This document shows, piece by piece, positions 17,082 through 34,724 of a stretch of DNA of 64,000 bases (positions within the stretch are counted from its first letter, which is position 1; the number at the start of each line of letters is the position of its first letter). A model generated the notes under the pieces. It had not been told where the DNA came from. It did not search any database and worked only from the letters and a program-made list of their open reading frames with translations. Made by a program: the position numbers and the translations under genes. The DNA comes from an uncultured cyanobacterium (GTDB taxonomy: Bacteria > Cyanobacteriota > Cyanobacteriia > Cyanobacteriales > CAWCAG01), in the NCBI GenBank assembly GCA_963803805.1, contig CAWDOD010000004.1:288001-352000 (forward strand), read 5' to 3'.

Positions 17082-17726
17082 CTAGGGTTTTTTGTATTTT
17101 ATCCTTAACTTTGCCCCTGCTGATGAGTTTAAACGTCCTAGTTCAAACCGATAGTTACGATGGTCAAGCATAAACTTTCTGACTAGCTTAGACTTTGCTC
17201 CACTTAATCTTCCTGGCTTTAAATAATCTTTGTATCTTTGAAGATATTTTAACTTTCTGGCAATGAAAGTTTTTTTCACTCCGTAGTTCCAGTATTTTAC
17301 TACATCGTACTTGTGTCCCATGTGAATATTACGATCAAAAGGTAGCCAACGCCTTGGCCCATTAGAGCTAGTTTTAACGTATACCTGCGGACCTTTTGTG
17401 GGATGATGCCTTGCTTTTCCTTTTTTAAACCACCGATTCCAGACCAACCTTCCTTGTTTACTATGTTTGCCAGGAGTTCTACCCATAAATGTCAATCGAG
17501 CAGAAGGTTTTTTACTACGGGGACGACCACGAGTTGCACGGCTAACTTGTCTACCTCCTTTAAGCTTCCCTTTGAAGACATTCTTTAAAAGAGGTTTCAA
17601 AAAACTAAACCGTTCCAATTGTACTTTTTCAGATTGTATTTCTTCTAGTTCCTCCGGCAAAAATTGTAAGTTTTCTAGTTCTGCTTCTGAGAACAACTCG
17701 ATTTGTTGTACCATTTTGACTGACAT
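17082..17726 (-). CDS. Acidic-leader protein with a C-terminal HNH/EndoVII-fold (GH-E-like) toxin nuclease domain
   Basis: MGRTPGKHS, HMGH..DVVKYWN, VRKFMLDHRNYRFE...NSSAG resemble polymorphic-toxin HNH nucleases; 10 Glu in the first 38 aa, remainder very basic. Confidence 0.7.
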   Translation of the reverse strand: MSVKMVQQIELFSEAELENLQFLPEELEEIQSEKVQLERFSFLKPLLKNVFKGKLKGGRQVSRATRGRPRSKKPSARLTFMGRTPGKHSKQGRLVWNRWFKKGKARHHPTKGPQVYVKTSSNGPRRWLPFDRNIHMGHKYDVVKYWNYGVKKTFIARKLKYLQRYKDYLKPGRLSGAKSKLVRKFMLDHRNYRFELGRLNSSAGAKLRIKYKKP

Positions 17727-17777
17727 GATTTTCTCCTTTGCTGACGATATTTAAGAAATATAGTTGTTGCAATTTGT

Positions 17778-18155
17778 CTAAGCCTGTTCAAAAACGACCT
17801 TATCTACACTCAGGAGAGGAATTTTTATGATGTGGTGGGGCTGTGTAAAAGCCTCTGTCACCAGAGCATCAGCCTGGGGTTGGCAAGACTTAATTATTGC
17901 AACTAAATGCGAATTTTTAATCTCGACGTTGGTAACTTCAACGGAGTAGCCGCCAGTAGGTTTCTCCCCTGCAAAAACTGCAACTACTTGATACTGGGTA
18001 AAATCTACTTCCGGCACTGGAGGAGGGGGGATGTGATCGCAACTATGCTGTTGCCAAATATCTATCCATGCTGCGGTATTACTAATCACTATCCGGTTAG
18101 CTGTCGGGTAACCACTGTTAATCCCTTTGGCAATAGTGCTAAAGTCAACTCTCAT
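17778..18155 (-). CDS. PrcB C-terminal domain protein (protease complex subunit family)
   Basis: PEVDFTQYQVVAVFAGEKPTGGYSVEV...TEAFTQPHHIIKI; starts 5 bp after the subtilase stop. Confidence 0.85.
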   Translation of the reverse strand: MRVDFSTIAKGINSGYPTANRIVISNTAAWIDIWQQHSCDHIPPPPVPEVDFTQYQVVAVFAGEKPTGGYSVEVTNVEIKNSHLVAIIKSCQPQADALVTEAFTQPHHIIKIPLLSVDKVVFEQA

Positions 18156-18160
18156 TTCAT

Positions 18161-19885
18161 TTACTTTCCTTGAGTTACGACTGAGGGAGGAATATTGGGG
18201 GCTTGGTAAGTTAGTTGATGAGATTGTTTCTTTTTCTCTCCATTAGGGGTACAAAAGCTCACATTCAATGTCAGATGATACTGACTGGAGTGGCTATTGG
18301 GCAAAACCTCAATCTCAAAATTACGGGTCGCATCTTTGCTAATACGCAAATCACCGTAATCTTTTTCCGTACTGGTAACTTTAATGTGGTCATGATTAGA
18401 AATCAAACTTGCTTTGACGGTTTGCATTACTTTTTCACCAGTATTCCTGACAGAAACATTCACCTGTTCAAGTAGCTTCCGCTCTTTTATGGCTGAGGTG
18501 AAGGTAACTGAGCTTTTTTCTCCCTGTTCTGTTGAAGATTTCCCTACCATCTCCAAAGCTTTGACAACATCAACTAATCCCTTACCAGCAATGTTGGGGT
18601 CTTGTTCTGAATCAAGGACTTGAGCTGATTCCCTAAGAATGTTTTTAACTTGCCAAGTTTTTAGTTGCGAATGGCGCTCCAACATTAGAGCCACAATCCC
18701 AGAAATGTGGGGAGCGGCCATGCTTGTACCAGAATTCCTAATATAACCTCCACCAGGCTTTGCGGAGATAATTTGATAACCTGGTGCTAAGATATCTGGC
18801 TTCGGTCGGTTATCGGTAGTAGGACCACGGCTGCTGAAAGGCATTACTTCTGTACCATCACCGTTAGATGCTCCCACAACAATCAGATCACCATTAGCAT
18901 CTGCTGGAGTTGTAATGGTTCCAGGATTAGGACCGCTATTTCCTGCACTCTTAACCAAAACTAAACCTAGTTGAACTGCTCTTTCAGCAATTTTGGTTAC
19001 AATACTCTTACCATCAAGCTTTGCAGCAATTCCCCAGCTACAGTTAACAATCTTCACCCCCTCTTTCATATCTCTCATGACATCCTCAAGGGCCTGAGCG
19101 CCTTTAGAACTACCTTCAAGAGCTTCAGTAGCACCACTGGGAAAGATTTTGTAGCTCCAAATGGTTACTTCCGGAGCCATTCCCCTATATTGGGAGCCAT
19201 TACCCCCAATGATACCGGCTACGTGAGTTCCGTGGGGATGGGGATTGCCCCAATCTTCATCCGTGTAATTTCGCTTGCGGATAACGCGACCCTTGAAGTC
19301 AGGATGTTCAGCATCAACTTCTCCATCTAAAACTGCAACAATTACTCCCCTACCAGTACCAACCAGTTCTTTGCTTCTGGCATCAACTACGCCCACTAAT
19401 GCAGCACTCTTGTCTAGTTCTAACTTTAAGGGTTTATCAACTTCTAGATATTCTACATCCTCTCGTTGGGCTAGGTTTTTAATTTGCAGAGGGGTAAGTT
19501 CAGCAACAACAGCATTACCTAATTTTAAGTTTTCCTCAATTTTCACTTGTTCTTGTTGCAAGTCTTCTAGAAATGACTCAGCACCTTGATCTGCTAAGCG
19601 TTCAAACTCTTCAAACTCAGAACATTCAAATTCTTCATTGCGTTCTTGGTAAGATTCCAGCAGTCCGCTAAATTCTTCATGAAAATCATCAAAGGACTTA
19701 GGGGGTTTGTAATGAATAACTACCCTCTGACGCTGTTGAGATTCAAGCCCCTCAACTTCAGCAGTAATTTGATGCTCTAAAAGGTCTTCGAGCTTTTCAT
19801 CAACTTCAGTTCCCCACTCTTGGCGAACTTGTCCTGAAGCGCTTTCTAGTGCCTCTGGTGTAATACATAAATCATTGTTAATCAT
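18161..19885 (-). CDS. S8 subtilisin-like serine protease with acidic pro-region and Ig-like C-terminal domain
   Basis: Catalytic D (VAVLDG), H (HGTHVAG), oxyanion N (SAGN), S (SGTSMAAP); no signal peptide visible. Confidence 0.95.
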   Translation of the reverse strand: MINNDLCITPEALESASGQVRQEWGTEVDEKLEDLLEHQITAEVEGLESQQRQRVVIHYKPPKSFDDFHEEFSGLLESYQERNEEFECSEFEEFERLADQGAESFLEDLQQEQVKIEENLKLGNAVVAELTPLQIKNLAQREDVEYLEVDKPLKLELDKSAALVGVVDARSKELVGTGRGVIVAVLDGEVDAEHPDFKGRVIRKRNYTDEDWGNPHPHGTHVAGIIGGNGSQYRGMAPEVTIWSYKIFPSGATEALEGSSKGAQALEDVMRDMKEGVKIVNCSWGIAAKLDGKSIVTKIAERAVQLGLVLVKSAGNSGPNPGTITTPADANGDLIVVGASNGDGTEVMPFSSRGPTTDNRPKPDILAPGYQIISAKPGGGYIRNSGTSMAAPHISGIVALMLERHSQLKTWQVKNILRESAQVLDSEQDPNIAGKGLVDVVKALEMVGKSSTEQGEKSSVTFTSAIKERKLLEQVNVSVRNTGEKVMQTVKASLISNHDHIKVTSTEKDYGDLRISKDATRNFEIEVLPNSHSSQYHLTLNVSFCTPNGEKKKQSHQLTYQAPNIPPSVVTQGK

Positions 19886-19980
19886 AGTTTGAGCAGAAAA
19901 ATGTGGATTTTGTGAGTTTCTGAGCCGAGTGCATCTCTTCTTGTAAGGACAGAGTTGATTTGAGAACTAAAATATTTTGC

Positions 19981-20026
19981 AGGGGCGAGTGGTTACTTGC
20001 TAAGTCAGGGAGATGCAAACGCCCCT
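19981..20026 (-). repeat. Short inverted repeat between the precursor gene and the subtilase gene
   Basis: AGGGGCG...CGCCCCT arms, about 20 bp downstream of the 175-aa ORF stop. Confidence 0.4.
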
Positions 20027-20047
20027 AGATAATTGGTTAATCCTTAG

Positions 20048-20575
20048 TTAGAACCAACCTAATTTAGCTCCTAACCAACCAGCAGCACCAGCAGCCCAAT
20101 ACTGCCAAGCTTCAAGTTCTTCTGATTTCAATCCAGCTTCTTTGCTAATAGCAGGGAAAAGTCTAGCAACAATAGGGGGACAAAAAATAGTAGCTAAAAA
20201 TCGTAAATAGCCTGGTAAAGGTTTGGCCACTATGGGGGTGATCAATTTAGCCACACTGTTAGGGCCTTGACGACAGGCTGCTTCTAACTTACTCCGAGTT
20301 TTCGGATTGGTAGTGATTTTTTTGACTGCTTTTTTGACCAAGCAAGTGAATACTTTCGTCAATTGACGTGTCATGTAACTGCTGGAAGCACAACCTTCAG
20401 TGTCTTCTACCATGTAGTACTCTACATCTTCAGCTACATTCTCTAAATCTATGCTTTCTAAGTTTTCTACAAACAAAGACTCAAGCCCTTCTAAGTCCAT
20501 AGATTCCATTTGTAGAGTCTCCATATCTGCTTCGGAAAATTCGAGTTGTTCGGAAGAATTAGTAGTGTAGGTCAT
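20048..20575 (-). CDS. Acidic-leader precursor protein with basic amphipathic core and Trp-rich C-terminal peptide
   Basis: 175-aa ORF with an RBS-like upstream sequence; 19 D/E and no K/R in residues 1-60; ends EELE-AWQYWAAGAAGWLGAKLGWF. Confidence 0.8.
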   Translation of the reverse strand: MTYTTNSSEQLEFSEADMETLQMESMDLEGLESLFVENLESIDLENVAEDVEYYMVEDTEGCASSSYMTRQLTKVFTCLVKKAVKKITTNPKTRSKLEAACRQGPNSVAKLITPIVAKPLPGYLRFLATIFCPPIVARLFPAISKEAGLKSEELEAWQYWAAGAAGWLGAKLGWF

Positions 20576-20993
20576 GATTTTCTCTTTTGGTGAGTTTAGG
20601 GTTTGTCATGAATGCAAAGTTCAGTTTGTTACTAGCCCTTTGCTGATTTCTTGATATTCATCATATCTGCAATAAATTGGCTTGGTAATTAACTACTTTT
20701 AGGTGTTAAGCAAAAAAATAGTAAGTATTTTTAGGTGCTAATTATTCCTATTGATATCAGTTGATTTCTAGTCTATTTTGCAAATCTAAAAATAATTAAC
20801 TTGGTATCTAAATATAGCTAATTGGCAACTCATATTTATTGAAGTTAATCTACGTATAGAGATGATAAGAGAGGAGCAAGTGATAAACTCAAAGCTTACT
20901 GAAGCTTAATATATTGGGTTTTGGCAAGCTATCAAACCTTTATTCAGAAGGTTAATTACAAATTTCAAGAACTAGAAATAGGAGAATTCCAAA

Positions 20994-21836
20994 ATGACTT
21001 CCACTGTTATTAAAGCAACAGCAAACACCTACATCAAATCTGAAATTCAAGAGGCATTACAATTGCCTGAAACTCAAAAGACTGTCATCTCCAAAGATAC
21101 AGTATTAGAACTTACAGATATTGCAGGGCTTGATCGTTCTCACTATCAAATCACTCTCAAAGAGCCTCTTAAAGAATTCGCTCTTTCCACTGGTTTTGTC
21201 TTCGCTCCCCACTGGGGTATTGTCAGTAGTGATGATCCTGACATCTTAAAAGAGTCAGCACCAAAGCACAAAAATCCAGCAGTACAAAGACAAATAGACC
21301 GGATAAGCAAGTATTTGCCAGTTGCTCTGTCCCTAAATCTAGAGACAAAAACTAAGTATTTTAGCCAACGTGACAACTATACAATGCCCCATCGAACCTG
21401 CTGTAGTAGTAGCAATGCTATGTATTTGGACTGGCTGTTGCGGGTGACAGGAAAAGCAGGATTAGATAGTGATAACGGCTATCTTAAAAAAGTTTTGGCT
21501 AACGGCGATACGATCTATCACCATGTACAGAGCGAGACTATTGCTGAGTATGGTTTCAAGACAAAATGGATGACCGATGCTGATTTAGACTTCGTTGAAG
21601 ATTTGGTAGATACCGGTTTTCCTGTAGTGGTGAATATCCTGCACCGTGGTAGTACAGCTAAACCCCGTGGTGGACACATTATTATGTTGATTGCCCGCAA
21701 AAACGGCTACTGGCTTGCCCATGACCCCTATGGCACATTAGAATCGCAATATTCCGTCACTAGGGGTGAGTACAGCCGAATCAGTGAAAGAGAATTTGCT
21801 ATCAGATGGCAAGGTGGTTACAGAATTCTTAAGTAA
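20994..21836 (+). CDS. C39-like (papain-fold) peptidase
   Basis: YFSQRDN...RTCCSSSNAM (catalytic Cys region), GGHII (His), HDPYG (Asp); AGGAG RBS. Confidence 0.8.
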   Translation: MTSTVIKATANTYIKSEIQEALQLPETQKTVISKDTVLELTDIAGLDRSHYQITLKEPLKEFALSTGFVFAPHWGIVSSDDPDILKESAPKHKNPAVQRQIDRISKYLPVALSLNLETKTKYFSQRDNYTMPHRTCCSSSNAMYLDWLLRVTGKAGLDSDNGYLKKVLANGDTIYHHVQSETIAEYGFKTKWMTDADLDFVEDLVDTGFPVVVNILHRGSTAKPRGGHIIMLIARKNGYWLAHDPYGTLESQYSVTRGEYSRISEREFAIRWQGGYRILK

Positions 21837-22010: not shown

Positions 22011-25000
22011 ATGAACCGTAATATCTATGCACTTTTGGTAGGAATTGATGAATATCCTGAGCCTGTCTCTTCTTTAAATGGCTGTGTTAACGATATCCAG
22101 ACCATACAAAACTATTTGCAAGAGCGAGTTGCAAAGGATGGATATCAACTTCATCTATATAAACTCTTGAATCAAAAAGCTACCCGTCAGGGCATTATTG
22201 ATGGGTTCCGAGGACATCTATGTAAGGCTCAGAAAAATGACATTGTTCTTTTTTACTACAGTGGTCATGGTTCTCAAGAACAGGCCCCAGAAGAGTTTTG
22301 GATAGTAGAACCAGATAGACTTAATGAAACTCTAGTTTGTTATGACAGTCGCTCGGGAGGAGGCTGGGATTTAGCTGATAAAGAATTAGCTAAACTTATT
22401 GCTGAAGTATCAACAACACAACCACACATCACAATTATTCTCGATTGCTGTCATTCTGGTGCTGGAACAAAAGACCCTCTGCAAGAAACAAAGGTTCGTC
22501 AGGCTAATACAGACAAGCGCAAACGCCCCATTGATAGCTTTTTGTTTAACTTAGCAGACCTAGAGCAATTATCTGACATTGCTAGTATAGAAGAGCATCC
22601 TACAGGCTGGAGAATTCCTAAAGGTCGTCATATTCTTTTAGGGGCTTGCCAAGCTAGTCAAAAGGCTAAGGAATTTAACGGAGAGGGAGAACAAAGGGGA
22701 GCTTTTTCTTATTTTTTATTAGATACATTGCAGCAAGCAACTGGAAAGTTAACCTATCGGGATCTGTTCAACCGGGCAAAAGCTATCATTAGTGGCCAAG
22801 TTGAGGCTCAACTTCCTCAACTAGAAGTTAATAATGCAGGGGACGAAAATCAGTTTTTCCTAGATGGTGCGATCGCAGAACGGACTCCCTATTTTACAGT
22901 TAGTTATAGCGTGAACTATGGCTGGATTATGGATGGGGGTGCTGTTCACGGTCTTCAAAGTCCTTCTCAGGGCGAAACAATTGTACTGGCCCTGTTTCCC
23001 TTTGATAGCCCTGCTCAAGATTTACGGGAACCTTCAAAATCTATTGGAGAAGCGAAAGTCATTGAAGTTTTGCCCCAGCTAAGTAAAATCGAAATTAGTG
23101 GAGTTGAGAACCTATATTCTGATACAACTAAAACCTTCAAAGCTGTTATCATCAGTATACCTTTGCCCCCCTTAGGAGTTTATTTTGGAGGAGAGCAAGG
23201 GGGAGTTAAGTTAGCTCGTGAGGCAATTAACTCAGCCGGGCTGGACAGTCAACCCTCAGTCTATATTCGAGAAGAACAGGAACTAAGCCAAGCACAATTT
23301 CGTTTACTGTGCCGCAATAACCAATACGTAATTACTCGTCCCGCCAATGGCCGTCCTCTGGTTGCTCAAATTGAGGGATATACCCCCGAAAATGCCCAGA
23401 AAGCCATACGAAGATTAGAACATATTGCCCGGTGGAATGCGATCGCTCAACTCTCCAGTTCGAGAAATGGTGTAATTAAAGTCGGGGATATTGAGATGAA
23501 GGTTATCTTCGATGATCCCGAACTTTCTCAATCAGGACAGATGCGTCTACCATACAAGTACGAGAATGGTAACTGGAAGCCTTCTTATTTTCGGCTCAAA
23601 CTGATAAATCATAGCAGGAAGCCCCTCTACTGTGCTTTAGTCAATTTAACAGAACGTTTCGCTGTTAGCGCTCCTTTTTTTGATACAGGTAGTGTGCGGC
23701 TAGACCCTGGGGAGGAGATTTGGGCTTTCGATGGAGATGAAATTATATTCAAAGTACCTGATGAATTATGGCAACAGGGGGTTACGGAGTACAAAGACAT
23801 TATTAAATTGATTGTTTGTACGGCTGAATTTGATGCTCGGTTAATGGCGCAAAAAGCCCTAGATATTCCTCGTCTTACCCAAAGAGATGTTCCGCCTCCC
23901 CAGCAAAATTCCCTAGACCGTTTGCTGAATCGAGTACAAAGCCGCGATATTGAACGTGGAGGTAAGGGTAGTTATGAAGATTGGTTTGCAGATGCTATCA
24001 CCATTACCACAGTTCGTCCCTTAGACAATATACCAGTGTCAGCAACAAGGGGAATAAACTTAGCCCAGGGAGTTAAATTACAGCCTCACCCTAGCTTAGA
24101 AGCTCATGCCCATTTAACTACAGTTCCCCAAGTTAGTTGGGATTTAGGAGGTGCGATCGCACCTCCCATTTTGCGGGAAGACCCTCAAGTTAGCCAAACT
24201 TTTCAATTCACCGCCAGTCGCGGTACAGATCCTGGTTTAAGTGTACTAGAGTTAACTCAAGTTGAAGACCATACCGTTGTCACTCCCGATACCCCTTTGA
24301 GGTTATGGGTTGATGCTCCATTAGAAGAAAATGAATACCTCTTACCTGTTGCCTACGATGGTGAGTTTTTTCTCCCCCTAGGTCACACTCAAAAAACGAA
24401 AGGAAGCGTAGAAGTAGAGCTAGAGCGACTACCCCAACCCTACAGTCAGGAGCGTAGTGTACAAGGTTCTATAAAAATTATGTTTCATAAGATCAGCGCC
24501 GAAAAGTTCGGTGGGGGATACGAATATCCCCTACTACGTGTGGCCCAAGTCGCATCGGACGAAACCATCACCTATATTACCGATAAAGAGCAAATTAAAG
24601 AATTAGTTAAGAATAGCAAGAAAGTTTTGCTCTATATTCATGGCATTCTTGGGGATACCGACAATATGGTCAAGAGTGTTCAAAGGGCGAAAACAACTTT
24701 AAATGGAGAAGAACATCCCCTCAAAGACAACTATGACTTAGTGCTAACTTTCGACTACGAGAATATCAATACCTCCATCGAAGAGAATGCCCGTCATCTA
24801 AAGAAGCGTCTCGAAGAAGTTGGCTTGAAGCCTAATCGCCACAGAGTATTACATATTGTTGCTCATTCAATGGGAGGGTTAGTATCTCGTTGGTTCATTG
24901 AGCGAGAAGGTGGTCATAAATTCGTGCAACATTTGGTGATGTTGGGTACACCAAATGCAGGCTCCCCTTGGTCAACAGTTCAAGAGTGGGTCACATTTGC

Positions 25001-25490
25001 TTTAGCCCTCGGCATCAATGGTCTTTCGGAGATTTTTTTGCCTGGGAAAATATTGGGGAGCTTAGTTAACGCTATTGAAGATGTGGATGTCTCTCTAGAC
25101 CAAATGAAACCAGGGTCTGAATTCCTCGAATCCTTAGCTGCAAGTCCCAAAGATCCGCGTATTCCCTACTCAGTTATTGCTGGTAATACTTCTTTGAAAG
25201 CTCTGGCTGTAAATGGAGAAGAATTGAGCAAAGTTAAACGGCTCACAGAAAAGTTATTCCGCCGAGTTGTAGAATCTCCCTTCTCCGGTGTAGCGAACGA
25301 TATCGCGGTAACAGTGCAGAGCATTAAGAGTATTCCAGAAAAGAGGAAGATTGCTCCCCAAATACAAGAAATTGCCTGTGATCATCTGACTTATTTTGAT
25401 ACCCCAGAAGGGTTGAACGCTTTAAGTCAGGCTTTAAGTCAGGCTTTAACCCAACAACAAGATAGTACTTTTTTAGGTTTTAGATTTTAG
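22011..25490 (+). CDS. Caspase-family (C14) protease fused to a C-terminal alpha/beta-hydrolase (lipase/PGAP1-like)
   Basis: ALLVGIDEY, YSGHGS, LDCCHSG dyad; C-terminal YIHGILG, IVAHSMGGL, LGTPNAGS, ND..V, H. Confidence 0.9.
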   Translation: MNRNIYALLVGIDEYPEPVSSLNGCVNDIQTIQNYLQERVAKDGYQLHLYKLLNQKATRQGIIDGFRGHLCKAQKNDIVLFYYSGHGSQEQAPEEFWIVEPDRLNETLVCYDSRSGGGWDLADKELAKLIAEVSTTQPHITIILDCCHSGAGTKDPLQETKVRQANTDKRKRPIDSFLFNLADLEQLSDIASIEEHPTGWRIPKGRHILLGACQASQKAKEFNGEGEQRGAFSYFLLDTLQQATGKLTYRDLFNRAKAIISGQVEAQLPQLEVNNAGDENQFFLDGAIAERTPYFTVSYSVNYGWIMDGGAVHGLQSPSQGETIVLALFPFDSPAQDLREPSKSIGEAKVIEVLPQLSKIEISGVENLYSDTTKTFKAVIISIPLPPLGVYFGGEQGGVKLAREAINSAGLDSQPSVYIREEQELSQAQFRLLCRNNQYVITRPANGRPLVAQIEGYTPENAQKAIRRLEHIARWNAIAQLSSSRNGVIKVGDIEMKVIFDDPELSQSGQMRLPYKYENGNWKPSYFRLKLINHSRKPLYCALVNLTERFAVSAPFFDTGSVRLDPGEEIWAFDGDEIIFKVPDELWQQGVTEYKDIIKLIVCTAEFDARLMAQKALDIPRLTQRDVPPPQQNSLDRLLNRVQSRDIERGGKGSYEDWFADAITITTVRPLDNIPVSATRGINLAQGVKLQPHPSLEAHAHLTTVPQVSWDLGGAIAPPILREDPQVSQTFQFTASRGTDPGLSVLELTQVEDHTVVTPDTPLRLWVDAPLEENEYLLPVAYDGEFFLPLGHTQKTKGSVEVELERLPQPYSQERSVQGSIKIMFHKISAEKFGGGYEYPLLRVAQVASDETITYITDKEQIKELVKNSKKVLLYIHGILGDTDNMVKSVQRAKTTLNGEEHPLKDNYDLVLTFDYENINTSIEENARHLKKRLEEVGLKPNRHRVLHIVAHSMGGLVSRWFIEREGGHKFVQHLVMLGTPNAGSPWSTVQEWVTFALALGINGLSEIFLPGKILGSLVNAIEDVDVSLDQMKPGSEFLESLAASPKDPRIPYSVIAGNTSLKALAVNGEELSKVKRLTEKLFRRVVESPFSGVANDIAVTVQSIKSIPEKRKIAPQIQEIACDHLTYFDTPEGLNALSQALSQALTQQQDSTFLGFRF

Positions 25491-25632
25491 ATGGAAAGAT
25501 TAATATCTAGCTTAAACTTATTGCTTATTACTTTTGCTAAGTACTATTTCCGGCTTTGGTAAATACAAGTATGATTTTCTTTCCCATTTCCCACATGAAG
25601 TTTAACTAGCTTTTTCGATGCTAATAGCTAAT

Positions 25633-25691
25633 AGCTATAGGCGTTTCGCGTATGCGTTGCCGCAGGCTAGCCTTGTCGTTAGACTAAGCTA
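25633..25691 (+). repeat. Small dispersed repeat, copy 1
   Basis: AGCTATAGGCGTTTCGCGTATGCGTTGCCGCAGGCTAGCCTTGTCGTTAGACTAAGCTA, nearly identical to 35501-35566. Confidence 0.8.
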
Positions 25692-25781
25692 CGAACAGAA
25701 ACATTTTGTACATCATATGCTCAATTACCAACGCCCTATTCCCAAACATCAGGTACTTTGCATTTCATGAATTTTTGAACC

Positions 25782-28700
25782 ATGTCCAAACATAAGTTTC
25801 AACGTAACTTTGCTTTTATCGTTGGTATCGACAAATATTACAACGGTATTCGTCCCCTAAAAACTGCCGTCAACGATGCCAAAAAGCTTACAGAAACCCT
25901 GCGGATTAAGCACGGCTATAAAGTGTGGATCTGTTTGGATGAACAGGCTACCCTCAAGGAGTTGATGGGATTTATCGAAAAAACTCTACCCCAACAAGTT
26001 AAGGCCGATGACCGTTTGCTGTTTTACTTTGCAGGTCATGGAGTTGCCCTTAATGACGATGATGGCCTCGAAGGTTACTTACTTCCCCAAGATGCTTCCC
26101 GTGATAATCGAGATAGCTATTTACCGATGAAGAAGCTACACGATGCTTTGAGTCAATTGCCCTGTCGTCACTTCTTAGGTATTCTTGATTGTTGTTTTGC
26201 AGGTGCTTTCCGTTCTTCAATTACTAGGGATGTAATTGTTCCTAGCAAAATGTATAGAGAGAGGTATGACCGCTTTATTGCTGACCCCGCTTGGCAAGTT
26301 ATTACTTCTGCTGCCTATAACCAAAAAGCCTTAGATAATTTTAATTTCCCAGAACGGGGTCAAATTGGCAATCATTCTCCCTTTGCCACAGTTCTCTTGG
26401 AAGCCCTAGAGGGGGCAGCAGACGCTTATCCCCCGCCTAGCAATGGTAAGCCCCAAGGAGATGGGGTGATTACAGCAATGGAACTCTGTTCCTATTTGCG
26501 TGACCGAGTGGAAACTCTCACAGAAGCCTTTGCTGTTCGCCAAACTCCCGATCTCCATCCCCTTAAAAAACACGACAATGGACAGTATATTTTCCTCACT
26601 CCAGGACACAAACTCAATTTACCTGCTGCCCCTCCACTCAACGAAGCTCAAAATCCTTACCGAGGTTTAAAGTCTTTTAATGAAAAACACAGCGACTTTT
26701 TCTTTGGGCGTAGTGAACTCACCCAAGGGTTAAAGAGTTTTGTCGAAACTAATTCTCTAACTGTGGTATTGGGTGCTAGTGGTTCAGGAAAATCTAGTTT
26801 AGTTAAAGCAGGCTTAATTCCCCAATTGAAGCAGGAAACTAACCCAAGGTGGCAGATCTTGTCACCCATACGTCCTGGAGAAAGACCATTTCAGGCTCTA
26901 AATCAGGCTCTAGACAACGCTGAACTTGGGGAAGTAGACTGGCAAAGTCCCCAAAAGACTCTGAGTGAAAGTATTACAGTTTGGGCAAAGAAACATTCTG
27001 ATTTCCAGCTATTGATTTTTATCGACCAAAGTGAAGAACTCATTACTATGTGTGCCGATAAAAACGAGCGCACTGCATTTTTCCAGCAGATACTAACAGC
27101 ACTAATAGAACATCGCCATCAATTGAGGATTGTGTTAAGCCTCCGTTCTGACTTTGAACCCCAAGTTAGGGATGCAGGCTTACAATTTGCTTGCGAGGGA
27201 TTAAACATGAGAAATACATTAATCCAGAGACGTTGGCAAAGTGGAAGGTTTATTGTTCCAGCGATGACACGGGCGGAGCTGCGGGAAGTGATCGAGAAGC
27301 CTGCTGAAGCCATGGTGATGTATTTTGAACCCTACGACTTAGTAGATCAATTAATTGAGGAAGTAGCAAATATGCCAGGAGCTTTGCCTCTACTTTCTTT
27401 TGCCTTAAGTGAACTGTATTTGAAATATTTAGAGCGACAACGGGAGGCCCAGTATAGCGGTAAACTAATTGAACGAAGTCTCATTCAAGCAGACTATGAC
27501 AAATTGGGGGGAGTAATTCAATCTCTGACCCAAAGGGCAGATGAGGAATATAATCAGCTAGTTAGAGAAAACTCCGACTACGAACCTGTTATCCGTCATG
27601 TAATGCTGCGGATGGTGGCTCTTGGTGGTGGAGAATTAGCCCGTCGGCGTGTTCCTTTGTCGGAATTAGCCTATCCAGCAGAGAAAAAAGATTTAGCAGA
27701 CGAAGTTATCGAGCGCTTTAGCAAAGCTAGGTTATTAGTTAAAGGGCAAGATGAGGAAAAAAATCCCTATGTGGAGCCGGCCCATGATGCTTTGGTACGG
27801 GGATGGGCAAAACTTTTATCCTGGAAACGAGAAGCTGAAGAGAGTTTACTGCTGCAACGGCGCTTAACTCAAGCAGTCTTTAACTGGAAAAAGCTTGCCA
27901 GGGAAGAACAACAACTATCTGGGTTTCAAGCTACAGCTAAACCTTTCATCGATTGGTTAGATGGCAAACTCAATATCCTCGAAGACTTTGGCAATAAGTT
28001 TAATCCTCGACTTGATGATCATTTTCTCCGGTTATGGTATGGAGTATCAAAGGAACAAGAGGGCTTGGAAGATCAACCAACAAGGCTTCTGTGGCACAAT
28101 GATGCTCATTTGGATAGGTTGGATGAAACTTTGGACTCTGATGATAATTGGTTAAATCAGTTAGAAACTGAGTTTGTCAAGAAAAGCATTGTCCGCAAAC
28201 GCCAGAATCATAATTGGCGGTGGCGAATTGCGATCGCAGTTATGGCAGGATTAAGTCTGTTGACCCTTTGGGCTTCATTTAATCTGAGAAGGGCCCAGAT
28301 GCAAGAAGTTAGTGCCTTGATGGAAGCTTCTGATGGTAATATTGTCTCAGATTTTGGTGGGGGTAAAATAGATGGAATAGTGGCAGCGTTTCGAGCCAAG
28401 GAAAATTTTGACCGTATTTGGTTTGCAGACCGTCATACCCGTACTCAAGTTGAACACAACCTGTCGAATACTGTTCATAATGTAGCTGACCCCAACACTC
28501 TGGGAAGACACGCAAACGCCCTTACCGATGTTAGCTTTAGTCATAAGGATAAGATGTTAGCCTCTGCTAGTTGGGATAACACGATTAAACTCTGGGATGC
28601 TAATACTGGAAAAGAAATTCATACTCTCAAGGGTCATACGAATGCTGTTATGAGTGTTAGCTTTGGTAGTGATGATAAGACATTGGCTTCTGGCAGTTTC

Positions 28701-30278
28701 GACGGCACAGCAAAACTTTGGGATGTTAACACTGGAGAAGAAATTTATACTCTTACCGGCCATAAAAATATTGTCAAAAGTGTCAGCCTTAGTTCTAAGC
28801 GCAAGATGTTGGCTTCTGGCAGTTTCGACAACACAATCATACTCTGGGATACTTCCACTGGAGGAAAAATTCATACCCTTAAAGGCCATGAAGATGTGGT
28901 CGAGGATGTCACTTTTAGTCTTGATGGCAAGATGTTAGCTTCTGCTAGTCGCGACGACACAGTAAAAATTTGGAATACCACTACCGGAGAAGAAATTCAT
29001 ACCTTCACCGGAGATAAAGGACATAAAGAAGATGTTAAAAGCGTTAGCTTCAACACTGATGGAACTCTAGCTTCGGTGAGTGCTGATAATACAGTGAAAT
29101 TATGGGATATCAAAGATAGGAAACTAATTAATACCTTTGAGGGAAATCAGATGGGAGATATTGATGTTGTGGATGTAACCTTCAGTGCTGATAGTGAAAT
29201 TTTAGCCTTTGCAACTACCGATAATCAAGTAATACTAAAATTCAAAAAAAATAACCAAGAATCAAAAGGCAGGGAAGATGTAGTTATTAGAAATGGTGTT
29301 CAAAGTATTAGCTTGAGTCCTGATGGCAAGAGGCTAGCTTCTGCTAGTAATGACTGGACGGTGAAACTTTGGGATACTCAAACAGGCAAGCGAATTAGAA
29401 CCTTTACTGCCCATACAAATGATGTTCAAAGTGTTAGTTTTAGTCATGATAGTAAGATGCTAGCTTCTGCTAGTGAGGATAATACTGTTAAAGTTTGGGA
29501 TACCAACACACGCCAGGAAATTAAAACCTTTACTGAACATGAAAGAAAAGTTTGGGATGTTAGTTTTAGTCCTAATAGAAAGATGCTTGCTTCTGCTAGT
29601 AGCGACAAGACAGTTAAACTTTGGCATATAGATAAATCCGAAGCTGTTCGTACCTTCAAGGGACATGATAGTACTGTTTGGGGTGTTAGTTTTAGCCCTG
29701 ATAGTCAGATGCTTGCTTCTGCTAGTAGCGACAAGACAGTTAAACTTTGGCATAGAGATAAACTCGAAGCTGTTCGTACCTTCAAAGGACATATAAATGC
29801 AGTATATGGAGTAAGCTTTAGCCCAGATGGAAAAATGCTTGCTTCTGCCAGTTTTGACAAAACAGTGAGACTTTGGGACATCAAGACAGGTAAGGAGATT
29901 CAAACCTTTGCTGGCCATGAAGGTGCAGTACGTGGAGTAAGCTTTAGCCCCAATGGAAAAATGCTCGCTTCTGCTGGTGACGATAATACAGTAAAGCTTT
30001 GGGACATCAAGACAGGTAAGGAGATTCAAACCCTTACTGGACATACAGATAATATTCGAGGGGTAAGCTTTAGCCCAGATGGAAAAATGCTTGCTTCTGC
30101 TGGTGATGACAATATGGTCAGGTTGTGGCAGTTGGATGTTGATTATTTAGTTAAGGAAGGGTGTACTTTTATCTCCGAATATTTTAAAAATAATCCTCCT
30201 GAAAACAACAGGGATAAGCAATTATGCAACAATATGGATCACGACGACCAACAAGTAATACGAGATTCTGTTTGGTAG
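25782..30278 (+). CDS. Caspase (C14) - STAND NTPase (nSTAND1-like) - TM - WD40 repeat protein
   Basis: FAGHG/LDCCFAG dyad, NPYRGL, Walker A GASGSGKSS, Walker B LIFIDQSEEL, PGALPLL, hydrophobic helix, more than 10 WD40 repeats. Confidence 0.92.
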   Translation: MSKHKFQRNFAFIVGIDKYYNGIRPLKTAVNDAKKLTETLRIKHGYKVWICLDEQATLKELMGFIEKTLPQQVKADDRLLFYFAGHGVALNDDDGLEGYLLPQDASRDNRDSYLPMKKLHDALSQLPCRHFLGILDCCFAGAFRSSITRDVIVPSKMYRERYDRFIADPAWQVITSAAYNQKALDNFNFPERGQIGNHSPFATVLLEALEGAADAYPPPSNGKPQGDGVITAMELCSYLRDRVETLTEAFAVRQTPDLHPLKKHDNGQYIFLTPGHKLNLPAAPPLNEAQNPYRGLKSFNEKHSDFFFGRSELTQGLKSFVETNSLTVVLGASGSGKSSLVKAGLIPQLKQETNPRWQILSPIRPGERPFQALNQALDNAELGEVDWQSPQKTLSESITVWAKKHSDFQLLIFIDQSEELITMCADKNERTAFFQQILTALIEHRHQLRIVLSLRSDFEPQVRDAGLQFACEGLNMRNTLIQRRWQSGRFIVPAMTRAELREVIEKPAEAMVMYFEPYDLVDQLIEEVANMPGALPLLSFALSELYLKYLERQREAQYSGKLIERSLIQADYDKLGGVIQSLTQRADEEYNQLVRENSDYEPVIRHVMLRMVALGGGELARRRVPLSELAYPAEKKDLADEVIERFSKARLLVKGQDEEKNPYVEPAHDALVRGWAKLLSWKREAEESLLLQRRLTQAVFNWKKLAREEQQLSGFQATAKPFIDWLDGKLNILEDFGNKFNPRLDDHFLRLWYGVSKEQEGLEDQPTRLLWHNDAHLDRLDETLDSDDNWLNQLETEFVKKSIVRKRQNHNWRWRIAIAVMAGLSLLTLWASFNLRRAQMQEVSALMEASDGNIVSDFGGGKIDGIVAAFRAKENFDRIWFADRHTRTQVEHNLSNTVHNVADPNTLGRHANALTDVSFSHKDKMLASASWDNTIKLWDANTGKEIHTLKGHTNAVMSVSFGSDDKTLASGSFDGTAKLWDVNTGEEIYTLTGHKNIVKSVSLSSKRKMLASGSFDNTIILWDTSTGGKIHTLKGHEDVVEDVTFSLDGKMLASASRDDTVKIWNTTTGEEIHTFTGDKGHKEDVKSVSFNTDGTLASVSADNTVKLWDIKDRKLINTFEGNQMGDIDVVDVTFSADSEILAFATTDNQVILKFKKNNQESKGREDVVIRNGVQSISLSPDGKRLASASNDWTVKLWDTQTGKRIRTFTAHTNDVQSVSFSHDSKMLASASEDNTVKVWDTNTRQEIKTFTEHERKVWDVSFSPNRKMLASASSDKTVKLWHIDKSEAVRTFKGHDSTVWGVSFSPDSQMLASASSDKTVKLWHRDKLEAVRTFKGHINAVYGVSFSPDGKMLASASFDKTVRLWDIKTGKEIQTFAGHEGAVRGVSFSPNGKMLASAGDDNTVKLWDIKTGKEIQTLTGHTDNIRGVSFSPDGKMLASAGDDNMVRLWQLDVDYLVKEGCTFISEYFKNNPPENNRDKQLCNNMDHDDQQVIRDSVW

Positions 30279-30338
30279 CGCAGGTTTCCTTGATAGCGGG
30301 TTTTTAAGAACCAGATTTGGCATCATTACAAATAATTC

Positions 30339-33300
30339 TTGAGTAAGAAAATGTTTAAACGCAACCTCGCTTTCGTTATTGGTATCAACAACTATCAAAA
30401 CGGCATTCCCCCCCTCAAGACTGCTGTTAACGATGCTAAAAAGCTTACAGAAACTCTACAGACTAAACATGGCTACCGAGTATGGGTTTACTTAGATGAA
30501 ATAGCTACCCTCCAAAATCTAATAAAATTCCTTGAAGAAACATTACCGGAGCAAGTTAAGGGCGATGACCGTTTGCTATTTTACTTTGCTGGTCATGGGG
30601 TTGCTCTTAATGGGGATGATGGGCCGGCGGGCTATTTAATTCCTCAAGATGCTTCCCTGGGGGATACTAGTACCTATTTTCCCATGGCTAAGTTACACAA
30701 TGCTTTGACCCAGCTCTGTTGTCGTCATTTTTTGGGGGTTCTCGACTGTTGCTTTGCAGGTGCTTTCCGTTGGTCTAGTAACAGAGATGTAGTTATTCCC
30801 ACCAAGGTGATTCACAAAGAAAGGTATGACCGCTTTATTACTGACCCCGCCTGGCAAATTATTACCTCCTCAGCCTCTGACCAAAAAGCCCTAGATAACT
30901 TTAATTTAGATACACAACGGGGTCAACTTGGAGAACACTCGCCTTTTGCAACTGCTTTGTTAGAAGCACTAGAAGGGGCAGCGGATATTTATCCTCCTCC
31001 TCAATCAGGGCAACCCGGTGGAGATGGGGTTATTACTGCAACTGAGCTATATTTGTACTTGCGCGATCGCATCGAAATTTCTACAGAACAAATTAGCCAC
31101 AGGCAAACCCCAGGAATTTGGTGTTTAAATAAACATGACAAAGGGGAATATATCTTTTTGTCTCCAGGACACAAACTCAATTTACCCCCAGCCCCTCCCC
31201 TTGATGAATCCCAGAATCCCTATCGTGGTTTGCGCTCATTTGAAGAAGAACATAGTAATCTATTTTTCGGCAGACAAGCTTTGATAGAACAATTGTCTCA
31301 ACAAGTTTACCAACAACCTCTAACTGTTGTTCTAGGGGTTTCGGGAAGCGGTAAATCTAGCTTAGTTAAAGCAGGATTAGTACCTTATCTTAAAAAGTTT
31401 AATCCCCAGCAATGGCACATTCTTACCCCTCTGCGCCCTGGAGAGTCACCGTTATTAGCTTTAAATCGAACCTTAGCAGCAGATAATCTGGTTGTAGATG
31501 ATGAAGTTGAGATCAAAGACAAGTTGACAAACTGGTTAGAGCAAAATTCTCAAACTAAATTGCTCCTTGTCATCGACCAAACAGAAGAATTATTAACCCT
31601 CTGTCGCGATGAAGAACAAAAAGAAAACTTTCTCAAACTCTTAGCAGAATTACTCCTTAACTACCCAGAAAATTTACGAATTGTCCTCACCTTACGGAGT
31701 GACTTTGAACCCCAATTTGCCAATTCTGTTCTAGAACCCTATTGGTATTCCTCTCGGTTTATCGTACCAGCCATGACACGGCAGGAATTAAGGACTTGCA
31801 TTGAAGAACCAGCCTCGGCAAGGGTTATGTATTTTGAACCCCATAGCTTGGTGGAACAGTTGATTGATGAAGTAATACAAATGCCTGGGGGATTACCTTT
31901 GCTGTCTTTTACCCTAAGTGAACTGTACTTGCAATATTTAAAGAGTGTCAGGAAGAGGTACAAGGAAAGACAGAGCTATTACTCAAGAAGATTACGAAAA
32001 ATTAGGAGGAGTAACCCGCAGTCTCACTCAAAGAGCAGACCAAGAATATGATAACTTAGTTCAAAAAGATACAGCCTATACTTTGACTATCCGCAATGTG
32101 ATGCTACGGATGGTAGCAGTAGGTGGTAGAGAATTAACTCGGAGGCGAGTTCTTCGCTCTGAACTCAAGTATCCTGAATCGGAAAATACCCGGATTCAAA
32201 CAGTAATTCAACGTTATACTGAGGCGCGTCTGTTAGTAGAAGGGCAAAATCACCAAGGAGAACCCTATGTAGAACCAGCCCATGATGCTTTAGTGCAGGG
32301 TTGGCAAAAACTTTTACAGTGGAAACAACAGGAAGAAGAAAGTTTAATTTTACAACGGCGATTAACACCTGCTGCGGTGGAGTGGCAGAGGGTTGTTAGT
32401 CAGAAAAAAACATCTGGTTCAGCTTTACATATTAGCACTGCTGTTGATTGGTTAGATCAACAACTTTCAAGCATTGAAAGTTTATTTACAAAAATCTCCA
32501 CAAACTTGGTTCGAGACTTGGCAGCGAACTCGAAGAGATCCGCGTAGCGATGCGCAAAATCAGCATCAACCTGTCCTAGATAAACCTAATGAGTTTCTTT
32601 GGAATGCTAATCCTTATCTAGATATTTGCCAAGCAAAACTCAATACCCAGCAAAATTGGTTTAACCAGTTAGAGGTTGACTTCCTTAAACGTAGCATTTT
32701 GCAAAAACGTCGTAATGTAAGTTGGCGGTGGCGCATTGCCCTTGGGGTAATCATCAGTTTAAGTGGGTTAACCATTGGAGTTTTGTTTAATCTGAGAAAC
32801 TCACAGATTAGGGAAGCTAAGGCTTTGAGGGAAGCAGCAGAAATCAACTTAGCTAATAATCATTCTCTAGACGGGATGATTGAGATTTTACAAGCTGGAA
32901 ATACCTTAGAAAAGCCACTTTTACAGATTTTTCCTCCCCCTTTGCAGCTACAAAATCAAATAACAGGAACCTTGCAAACAGCAGTTTACACAGTCAGGGA
33001 ACGCGATCGCCTATCAGGTCATCAACGTCCGGTTAGAAGTGTAGTATTTAGCCCCAATGGTCAGCAATTAGCCACCAGTGGAGATGATGGCATCGGTCGT
33101 TTATGGAGTCAGCAGGGTCAGGAATTACAAAAATTGGACAAACAGCAAGGTTCTGTAAGCAGTATTAAGTATAGTCCGGATGGTCAACTAGTTGCTACAG
33201 TAGGTGATGATGGCTCGAATCCGTCTGTGGAATCTTCAGGGGGAGTTAGTCAAACAATGGAATGCTCAACAGGGTCAGTTATGGGGAATTGAATTTAGTC

Positions 33301-34724
33301 CCGATGGTGACTTCATCGCTAGTGAAGGTAACGATGGAACAGTGCGATTATGGGACTTGCAGGGGAACTTCTTAAGAGAATTAAAAGGGCATCAAAAGCC
33401 AGTAAGAAGTATCAGTTTCAGTGCAGATAGCGAACGGATCGCTAGCGGCTCAGATGATGGTACAATCCGTCTGTGGAATCTCCAGGGTCAAGAACTAGTA
33501 AAAATTCCTGCTCATCAAGGAACTGTAAGTAGTCTAAGTTTTAGCCCCGATGGTCAACGACTTGCTAGCACAGGAGAAGACAGCTTAGTGCGAATGTGGA
33601 ATATACAGGGCAAGTTAATCTCGGAATGGGAGGCTCAACAACTTAAACTTTGGGCTGTAGCATTTAGCCCTAATGGGCAAAAATTAGCTACGGCAGGGGG
33701 AGACGGCACTGTTAAAGTTTGGGATTTACAAGGTCAAGAATTAGATAAGTTTGTCGCCCACAAAGGGCCCGTTAGAAGTCTCAGCTTTAGTCCCGATGGT
33801 AAGCAGTTAGCTAGTAGCGGCGATGATACGATGGTTCGTATCTGGGATTTACAAAGCCAAGAATTAAAAGCATTTGTTGCTAAAAATCTAGCTAATGAGA
33901 ATACTTTAAGTACAGATGGGGAGAAAATAGTTAGCGGTGGTAAGGATGGTACTATTCGCTTGTGGGATCTCCAAGGACAACCTTTAGGCAAGACATTTAA
34001 GGCTCATTCTCACCCTGTTGAAAGTGTGGCTTTGAGTACAGATGGGGAGAAAATAGTTAGTGGTGGTAAGGATGGTACTATTCGCTTGTGGGATCTCCAA
34101 GGACAACCTTTAGGCAAGCCATTTACAGGTCATTTAGATGGGGTCAACAGTGTTGCTTTCAGTCGAGATGGTAAGAAAATAGTTAGTGGTGGTGAGGATG
34201 GCACTATTCGCCTGTGGAACTTACAAGGACAACCTTTGAGGGAGGAGCCATTTACAGGTCATTTAGGTGGGGTCAATAGTGTTGCTTTTAGTCGAGATGG
34301 TGAGAAAATAGTTAGTGGTGGTGAGGATGGTACTATTCGCTTGTGGGACTTACAAGGTGAGTGGAAACGAGCCTTTCAACTCTATCAACCTCAAGTAACT
34401 TCCGTAACCTTTAGTGCAGATGCCAAGAGGATTATCAGTAGCGATAACATAGGTCGTATTTTAATCTGGGATTTGCAAGACCCTCAAGGGCAACTACCAA
34501 TGGTAGTATGGCAAACTCAACAGCCTACTCTTAGTAGTATTAGTTTGGATTCAGAGGGTAAATTGCTAACTACTTTAGGAAGCAACGGTAGTGTCAAATT
34601 GTGGTCATTTCAATCATCCGATGAACTAATGCAACAAGCTTGCCGATGGGCAGGTAACTATTTAAAAAACAACCCCGGTATCGAAGAGAGTAATCGCAAT
34701 CTCTGCAATAACATAAAGAACTAA
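30339..34724 (+). pseudogene. Paralogous caspase-STAND-TM-WD40 gene broken by three +1 frameshifts
   Basis: ORFs 30339-32051, 31945-32547, 32474-33292 and 33204-34724 align consecutively to the upstream paralogue; shifts near 31950, 32515 and 33215. Confidence 0.85.

Follow-up and report, generated by a model that had tools for sequence, protein, structure and literature searches.

Four co-oriented open reading frames (ORFs) on the minus strand form a cassette at positions 17082-20575 of a 64,000-nucleotide stretch of DNA from an uncultured cyanobacterium (the window, i.e., the whole stretch analysed). On balance, we read it as a protease-matured, polymorphic pro-effector cassette of filamentous cyanobacteria, holding a stored weapon aimed outward. 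The cassette codes for a precursor with an acidic leader (ORF1), a subtilase of family S8, a stand-alone PrcB_C protein, and a second leader-bearing precursor (ORF4). We propose that each effector is made as a charge-masked precursor, where an acidic leader of ~60 residues would be placed on a strongly basic cargo. The constant cargo, that of ORF1 (cargo A), would be a four-helix bundle, often with a hydrophobic tail, and the second position would hold an interchangeable cargo. The S8 protease would start out as a zymogen that carries an I9-like propeptide; the PrcB_C protein would probably stabilise or control this protease, which would remove or shred the leader at Leu-Glu, above all at an A-G-L-E-[A/G/R]-R-G-G junction. 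Removal of the leader would free the active basic protein, and activation would be gated by way of the zymogen and PrcB_C.

The first-pass annotation of this DNA had described four co-oriented genes with gaps of 5 and 51 bp, and this arrangement is confirmed (Table 1), the gaps along the cassette being 162, 5, and 51 bp. A stretch of 21 nt that contains the ribosome-binding site and start codon is 90% identical between the ORF1 and ORF4 genes. The RNA fold of the spacer between ORF1 and S8 is no better than those of shuffled sequences (z −0.84), a scan for promoters and terminators returned nothing above shuffles, and the 475 bp after ORF4 contain no same-strand ORF of at least 36 aa. For signal peptides a hydropathy heuristic was used, by which an N-terminal hydrophobic stretch is absent from all four proteins (maximum hydropathy 0.6–1.5, compared with 2.34 for the positive control, an HtrA-like neighbour protein with a signal peptide). 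By the same measure, no signal was found in 10 S8 and 11 PrcB_C orthologues, and neither a lipoprotein nor a signal sequence was found on the PrcB_C protein of the window.

The same organisation recurs in other genomes. A profile of the ORF1 family matches 3 of 401 genomes in a phylum-wide sample, which, like the order-wide sample of 401 genomes used below, was drawn from a larger group. Two other genomes have two full-length matches each and a third match that covers the leader only (E 1.6e-11 and 5.5e-11), and both loci consist of two cargo-A genes, S8, PrcB_C, and then the leader on a different cargo, which in one of them is F-box-like. Together with the window and eight loci from 185,579 species genomes, this gives eleven loci. 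All ten outside the window were found via cargo A, and the informative part is the presence of S8 with PrcB_C and of a second, unrelated cargo. The order cargo A (one or two copies), S8, PrcB_C, variable cargo (one or two copies) is kept in 10 of the 11, with S8 identities of 56–61% across the related loci. The first-pass annotation had proposed a search for homologues of the S8 and PrcB_C pair, and in these 10 loci the orthologues do retain leader-bearing neighbours while the C-terminal cargo is swapped.

In the order-wide sample, S8 orthologues (E ≤ 1e-60) are present in two genomes, both with leader neighbours. PrcB_C occurs in 33 of the 401 phylum-sample genomes. Of 30 PrcB_C loci read, three have an S8 orthologue, and leader ORFs are found at each of these and at none of the remaining 27, of which one has a distant S8 and 26 have no S8 within 1.5 kb. 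As a negative control, none of 80 listed metagenome loci with a distant S8 (26–38% identity) carries a leader ORF, and one has PrcB_C. Among the matches listed, the metagenome scan with the S8 alignment gave only such distant S8 proteins and no orthologues, and a scan of genome contigs with a single S8 protein found no relative. The cassette is sporadic even within the genus, where one same-genus genome has none, and no match to cargo A was obtained on the viral contigs scanned, as expected for accessory conflict genes.

As for the leaders, their homology in ORF1 and ORF4, claimed by the first-pass annotation, is borne out. The pairwise comparison (15 of 41 identities, BLASTP E 8e-4) is modest alone, and is joined by the matches of the ORF1-family profile to leaders on unrelated cargo, at the E values given above. 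We also built a leader profile from eight leaders. Among 14,849 frames of at least 60 aa in the 5.3-Mb genome of the window, only ORF1 and ORF4 score below E 0.01; both leaders are contained in the profile, and the informative point is that the genome has no others. The profile matches at least 175 proteins in a word-indexed library, and the named hosts are all filamentous cyanobacteria (Nostoc, Brasilonema, Tolypothrix, Microcoleus, Trichocoleus, Potamolinea, Hassallia, and Scytonema). An exhaustive search of 1.84 billion representatives gave 102 clusters at E ≤ 1e-3, of which 87 are at E ≤ 1e-10, with no tail of weak matches. The leader nearly always occupies residues 1–60 in these clusters, and two of the weakest matches, a pentapeptide-repeat protein and a protein of 2781 aa, appear to be false positives.

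Behind this leader the cargo varies widely. When the leader is removed, 196 leader proteins with a cargo of at least 40 aa fall into 64 cargo clusters (28 in an earlier clustering of 133 leader proteins), the largest being cargo A with 88 members, and 46 being singletons. Mean leader identity is 71% across unrelated cargo (5422 pairs) compared with 76% within a cargo cluster (143 pairs), a pattern that marks a constant module recombined with variable partners. Most cargoes are without a known family, and Pfam names 8 of 119 proteins in one set and about six real cases of 66 in another. The families identified by Pfam are Endonuclea_NS_2 (three proteins), the barnase-type Ribonuclease PF00545 (five proteins), CAP (two proteins), F-box (three proteins, to which the cargo of locus L010 is added), and GH-E (one protein). 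One further cargo is hydrophobic and holin-like, RGG, SPRS, or proline motifs abound in many others, and the lengths range from 75 to 240 aa. In P0041, P0059, P0104, P0128, P0150, and P0170 the cargo consists largely of proline-rich, PPxY-like, SR/SPRS, or Arg-rich repeats rather than of folded domains; such repeat-type cargoes are reminiscent of eukaryotic short linear motifs.

In the first 133 proteins the leader has a mean net charge of −18.3. The leaders have a D+E fraction of 0.32, and hydrophobic-Glu dipeptides number ~9.6 per leader across the family. The cargo is net positive in all 133 proteins of the first set and in 194 of the 196 in the full set, the two exceptions being a fragment and the probable false positive. 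Where the two parts meet, at −6 to +14 relative to the leader end, 93 of 107 variable-cargo proteins have a Leu-Glu, compared with 21 of 107 shuffles, and the junction has the consensus E-A-G-L-E-[A/G/R]-R-G-G-R-R. The short-leader form in ORF4 reads QLERFSFLK at this point, and an ELERF(G/S)FLK junction recurs in P0159 and P0166 with other cargo.

The protease is a clear member of its family (Pfam Peptidase_S8, PF00082; E 3e-50, 171.6 bits against a cut-off of 21.8), and all of 10 orthologues keep its catalytic residues D187, H218, N316 (the oxyanion Asn), and S388 unchanged, in agreement with the intact triad noted earlier. Its score for the NCBIfam mycosin model is far below cut-off. An acidic N-terminal extension and an I9-like propeptide, for which the Pfam match is weak, make up approximately residues 1–156, and a β-rich C-terminal domain corresponds to residues ~455–574. 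The segment L155-E156-L157-D158 is invariant in 10 of 10 orthologues, with L155-E156 ending the predicted propeptide. In the closest solved relative (PDB codes 3afg and 9ues; E 1.7e-40), Glu156 pairs with the 3afg residue directly before a five-residue insert, and the deposited mature chain of 9ues starts at the insert that follows this position. We take the start of that chain to be the propeptide/mature boundary of the enzyme. Because the predicted autoprocessing site of S8 and the precursor junctions share Leu-Glu, we infer that S8 cuts the precursors there, and the junction frequency together with the invariant Leu-Glu in the protease gives indirect support for cleavage next to Glu. The first-pass annotation had seen in the locus a protease-gated effector cassette with a Glu-specific subtilase. 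This interpretation is supported in part, the leader being retained in neighbours with swapped cargo as its proposed check anticipated; Glu specificity is a plausible reading of the 93 junctions and of L155-E156.

The PrcB_C protein (Pfam PF14343; E 3.9e-16, 59.4 bits against a cut-off of 24) has a partner role that we propose by analogy. In Treponema, PrcB is described as binding the S8 protease PrtP, and PrtP protein is undetected without PrcB (PMC8167434). A comparable stabilising or controlling function is probable in the cassette. In genome G302 a second PrcB_C gene, 53% identical to that of the window, follows the F-box-type cargo (Table 1). PrcB_C domains elsewhere (L105–L133) are mostly part of longer proteins, with open frames of 200–460 aa, often in two or three tandem copies, and mostly without an S8 gene within 1.5 kb; in L127, a distant S8 is directly followed by a PrcB_C protein, with no leader ORF.

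Cargo A first appeared as a rare family of 12 sequences, and no Pfam family scores above cut-off on ORF1. An AlphaFold2 (AF2) model of ORF1 based on 75 family sequences has a mean predicted local distance difference test (pLDDT) score of 70. Residues 1–39 are disordered in the model, a weak helix spans residues 44–56, and no strands are present in residues 1–64. The cargo residues 65–147 are modelled as a four-helix bundle with pLDDT above 90, and a hydrophobic C-terminal helix (residues 155–174) is predicted at low confidence. A hydrophobic tail is found in 36 of the 88 cargo-A proteins, and where two copies lie side by side, often one is tailed and the other tailless. Foldseek gave no match to the model at E ≤ 0.001, the best VIA-align Z of 6.4 is inside the noise stated for helical bundles and does not imply a novel fold, and the best score in an Atlas search, 0.81, is to unnamed clusters and uninformative. 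ORF1 may be membrane-active, a weaker label than the one it was first given.

The ORF4 cargo, called nuclease-like in the first-pass annotation, is a weaker case than was stated there. The matches to the GH-E profile (PF14410), of 16.0 and 18.6 bits, fall short of the cut-off (25) and cover profile positions 10–29 only, and another sub-threshold Pfam match is to QIL1. In a language-model search for look-alikes, the three best clusters are GH-E nucleases with scores of 0.92–0.93, and 20 of 30 matches belong to the GH-E nuclease set of families. ORF4 has a single homologue, P0014, which has no GH-E match; the motifs HMGHK and RNYRFE...NSSAGA are kept between the two. When the ORF4 alignment was searched as a profile against the PDB, no match had an E value below 1.3, and the alignment of P0013 with the GH-E-bearing P0107 is confined to the leader. 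The net charge of this cargo cluster is ~+40.

The lack of signal peptides and of a conserved exporter or immunity gene makes a stored weapon against other organisms the most likely function, and the diversity of cargo and the eukaryote-type modules favour one directed outward. Several cargo types suggest that the targets would include eukaryotic grazers or hosts as well as bacteria, and the proteins would be expected to leave the cell when it lyses or ruptures, without a dedicated secretion pathway. Among 50 flanking ORFs from the ten other loci we found no exporter, modifying enzyme, second protease, or heterocyclase, which extends to related loci what the first-pass annotation had noted in the window. 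Nor do the 11 loci have a conserved gene in the immunity position or a recurring small downstream gene, with the contigs that encode RNase cargo ending before the barstar position. The phage-type lysozyme downstream in three of the loci, fused in two of them to PG_binding_1 and a YkuD L,D-transpeptidase-like domain, may have a lysis or release function.

A number of observations weigh against this reading. Locus L012 has three leader genes and neither S8 nor PrcB_C, and the rest of that genome gave no S8 orthologue at E ≤ 1e-30; the protease may be dispensable, or else this copy has decayed. The Leu-Glu junction motif is present in only 10 of the 88 cargo-A proteins, and the processing site of this cargo, if it has one, is less clear than that of the variable cargo, although its leaders do contain other hydrophobic-Glu dipeptides. 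The positions in S8 that we take to line the classical S1 pocket, assigned by subtilisin numbering, hold Thr/Ser and no basic residue, and a Glu at P1 is thus not accounted for by simple electrostatics; the cleavage register may place Glu at P1 or at P3. The ORF4 cargo, a probable GH-E type HNH/EndoVII nuclease, scores below the Pfam cut-off for that family, and the confidence of its structural model (pLDDT 42.9) is too low for use. The surroundings of caspase, STAND NTPase, and WD40 genes also fit self-directed cell death, and the cassette offers no evident route by which cytoplasmic proteins would be delivered to their targets.

The alternative that ranks second, which we regard as unlikely, is a self-directed suicide or abortive-infection module. 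A trigger such as phage, damage, or a signal from a STAND or caspase sensor would then free the cytoplasmic S8 from its propeptide or from PrcB_C, the leaders would be stripped, and the basic toxins would kill the producer. The missing signal peptides of all four proteins, the missing immunity gene, and the downstream lysozyme speak for such a module, as do the caspase, nSTAND1-WD40, and CHAT-CHASE2 genes that adjoin the cassette in the window and most related loci. However, these genomes abound in STAND, WD40, and CHAT genes, which may adjoin the cassette by chance. PADLOC matches both S8 (its ‘subtilase’ model, E 2.2e-54) and the neighbouring caspase (2.6e-40), but the former concerns the generic S8 domain only, no PADLOC model matches the PrcB_C protein or ORF4, and that for ORF1 is a weak and probably chance match to AbiEii (E 0.0066, 14 bits). 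PHROGs likewise matched only the generic S8 domain. F-box and CAP cargoes have no obvious target inside a cyanobacterial cell, 64 cargo types exceed the diversity that a suicide effector should need, and no match was obtained on the viral contigs scanned.

Somewhat less likely again is a more specific form of outward weapon, a natural ‘activatable cell-penetrating’ system against eukaryotes (grazers or symbiotic hosts) that would be wound-activated and independent of secretion systems. The polyanionic leader would here neutralise both the effector and, ahead of it, a polycationic entry segment rich in Arg/Gly. Cell rupture or ingestion would take the zymogen, PrcB_C, and the precursors to a new milieu, where the Leu-Glu cut would be made, cargo A would serve as membrane translocator, and the F-box, nuclease, RNase, and proline/SR-rich cargoes would act in the attacker.

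We give a lower probability still to the possibility that the leader is mainly a signal that targets or packages the cargo for an unlinked machine (contractile injection, vesicles, or an unknown export route), or a docking tag for PrcB_C or the C-terminal domain of S8, with S8 trimming after delivery and not acting as a gate. The strictly N-terminal position of the leader at residues 1–60 would suit such a signal, and its identity of ~71% across cargo resembles that of the trafficking domains described for polymorphic toxins (PMC3482391). Genomes G260 and G000 (in the latter on another contig) contain a phage-sheath gene (PF04984), but none turned up in G302, which is 99% complete and has the full cassette, and contractile injection is hence not taken to be a required partner. 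No exporter or injection gene is conserved beside the 11 loci, S8 and PrcB_C are the only constant non-cargo genes, and the occurrence of Leu-Glu both at the junction and where the S8 propeptide is predicted to end points to processing. The remaining alternative, a cyanobactin-like or other pathway for ribosomally synthesised peptides with post-translational modifications (RiPPs) where S8 would remove the leader from a short modified peptide, has in its favour an S8 protease with leader-bearing precursors in cyanobacteria, but is close to refuted by the cargo (75–240 aa, including folded enzyme domains), by flanks without a second protease, heterocyclase, or other modifying enzyme, and by S8 itself (82.6 bits with the PatA/PatG model TIGR03895, whose cut-off is 421, and, with 1.2e-22 to the solved cyanobactin protease 4h6w, no closer to it than to subtilisin BPN′), so that the earlier statement that the locus fits no RiPP class holds.

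Other genes around the cassette are listed in Table 1. A small AraC-family regulator lies directly upstream and co-oriented in six of the 11 loci, the window not being one of them. In the window, a conflict island (22011-34724, plus strand) adjoins the cassette, and its last gene, which is divided into four overlapping ORFs, may be a frameshifted pseudogene. A divergent Peptidase_C39_2-like protein encoded between ORF1 and the island is probably unrelated, because it does not occur beside the cassette in the other ten loci. In L012, the two cargo-A genes and one variable-cargo gene have kept the AraC gene upstream, and a three-gene pPIWI_RE island and a gene for a helix-turn-helix (HTH) + M78 protein are found directly downstream.

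Table 1. Positions of the cassette genes, their elements, and neighbouring genes in the window, and of selected genes at other loci (locus identifier given before the colon)
Feature	Position	Strand	Description
ORF1	20048-20575	−	175 aa; pro-protein of leader and cargo A (constant cargo)
ORF1 acidic leader, residues 1–62	20390-20575	−	leader profile E 7e-28; repeated LE, ME, and VE dipeptides
ORF1–S8 spacer	19886-20047	−	162 bp
S8 subtilase	18161-19885	−	574 aa; Pfam Peptidase_S8
PrcB_C protein	17778-18155	−	125 aa; stand-alone; starts 5 bp past the S8 stop codon
ORF4 ribosome-binding site/start region	17724-17744	−	direct repeat of ORF1 region 20573-20593
ORF4	17082-17726	−	214 aa; short-form leader and very basic cargo; candidate GH-E type HNH/EndoVII nuclease
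ORF4 leader, residues 1–45	17592-17726	−	leader profile E 1.8e-20, profile positions 1–48
ORF4 junction motif L37-E38-R39	17610-17618	−	predicted processing site; junction recurs with other cargo
Peptidase_C39_2-like protein	20994-21836	+	280 aa; E 2.4e-7; divergent; 418 bp upstream of ORF1
Caspase + DUF7379/α/β-hydrolase protein	22011-25490	+	1159 aa
nSTAND1-WD40 protein	25782-30278	+	1498 aa
Caspase-nSTAND1-WD40 gene	30339-32051, 31945-32547, 32474-33292, 33204-34724	+	four overlapping ORFs
AraC-family HTH_18 regulator	L011:8908-9591; L012:8326-8859; L013:7057-7626; L014:4418-4939; L016:5579-6106; L018:8303-8830		small; directly upstream and co-oriented
Phage-type lysozyme	L009:12929-14467; L011:16794-18356; L014:10259-10999		downstream; 3/11 loci
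Leader genes of L012	L012:9165-11204		two cargo-A genes and one variable-cargo gene
Second PrcB_C gene, genome G302	L010:4769-5164		after F-box-type cargo
Distant S8 and PrcB_C protein, L127	G134:C2:33104-36286		no leader ORF

Should the proposed mechanism be correct, these cyanobacteria would keep a varied toxic or host-manipulating arsenal harmless by means of a covalent acidic leader, and not by an immunity protein, and would arm it with a dedicated subtilase in a compact and self-contained form. The cassette would supply a second context, outside the oral spirochaetes, for the widespread and functionally obscure PrcB_C domain, and some 60 families of small basic effector domains would be newly defined by the cargoes. 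Another question would then be by what route proteins, some of them with F-box or other eukaryote-type modules, are delivered by multicellular cyanobacteria without a recognisable secretion system. The trio of leader, Leu-Glu junction, and subtilase could serve as a programmable pro-protein switch.

The first-pass annotation presented the cassette as a candidate undescribed system, and we found no description of a combination of S8, PrcB_C, and acidic-leader cargo in the searchable full-text literature, a body that excludes subscription journals and supplements. The statement needs qualification in that operon-encoded S8 peptidases with polymorphic toxins have already been described, as the S8-PTS of Gram-positive bacteria (PMC9424270). 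This is the closest described system, although most of its defining features, as given in the available text of that paper, are not found in the cassette. In both, polymorphic toxins share a locus with an S8 peptidase that has its own gene. The S8-PTS toxins likewise have a shared acidic N-terminal module, followed by a basic patch and swapped C-terminal nuclease or RNase domains, and the peptidase has been proposed to release the toxin (PMC9424270). Peptidase and toxins in S8-PTS carry signal peptides (PMC9424270), whereas none were seen here by hydropathy. The N-terminal module is described as a seven-stranded BetaH of ~120 aa with a helix (PMC9424270), and the cassette leader, with 60 aa and no predicted strands, is set apart from BetaH by that description. 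The S8-PTS peptidase is a single-domain protein, unlike the S8 with propeptide and C-terminal domain in the cassette, and an immunity gene follows each S8-PTS toxin (PMC9424270), while none is conserved here. The proposed cleavage site is dibasic in S8-PTS and Leu-Glu in the cassette, and the PrcB_C partner and the constant second cargo are not among the S8-PTS components described (PMC9424270).

The cassette shares with polymorphic toxin systems in general (Zhang et al. 2012, PMC3482391) a constant N-terminal part followed by variable C-terminal toxin domains, which in those systems include GH-E, Endonuclease_NS_2-type, and RNase domains, frequently with processing proteases (PMC3482391). The term PrcB does not occur in the available text of that article. 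Unlike those systems, the precursors are small and have no recognised trafficking domain in Pfam or NCBIfam, the flanks contain no secretion-system gene, an immunity gene is missing, and eukaryote-type F-box and CAP cargoes are present.

The pairing of an S8 subtilase with a protein that has the PrcB C-terminal domain is also seen in dentilisin (PrtP-PrcB-PrcA) of Treponema denticola (PMC8167434). Dentilisin is composed of outer-membrane lipoproteins encoded in the order prcB-prcA-prtP (PMC8167434), whereas the cassette proteins are soluble, without signal or lipobox, with S8 preceding PrcB_C and with leader-bearing cargo genes in addition. The 5 bp between S8 and PrcB_C leave no space for another gene (the PrcA model was not searched), and both proteins fall below the dentilisin equivalog cut-offs, with 60.9 bits against 125 for PrcB (NF033596) and 53.1 against 300 for PrtP.

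The cyanobactin pathway (PatA/PatG, PMC4663559) resembles the cassette in being cyanobacterial and in the use of a protease of the subtilisin type to take off a leader at a short recognition sequence, and one cyanobactin cluster can hold several precursor genes (PMC4663559). Such clusters are described as always encoding a pair of proteases with a DUF domain and in most cases a heterocyclase, with macrocycles of 6–20 residues as products (PMC4663559), none of which apply here. In layout only, the cassette is similar to bacterial gasdermins and to activatable cell-penetrating peptides (ACPPs; PMC3694763), where a protease removes an inhibitory segment and thereby arms a basic or membrane-active protein. 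The gasdermin family was not found on ORF1 or ORF4 by Pfam, and the ORF1 cargo is all-helical in the model; the ACPPs, with their succession of polyanion, cleavable linker, and polycation, are man-made (PMC3694763). Set against these systems, the cassette is a real and rare, and apparently undescribed, variant of protease-processed polymorphic effector systems.

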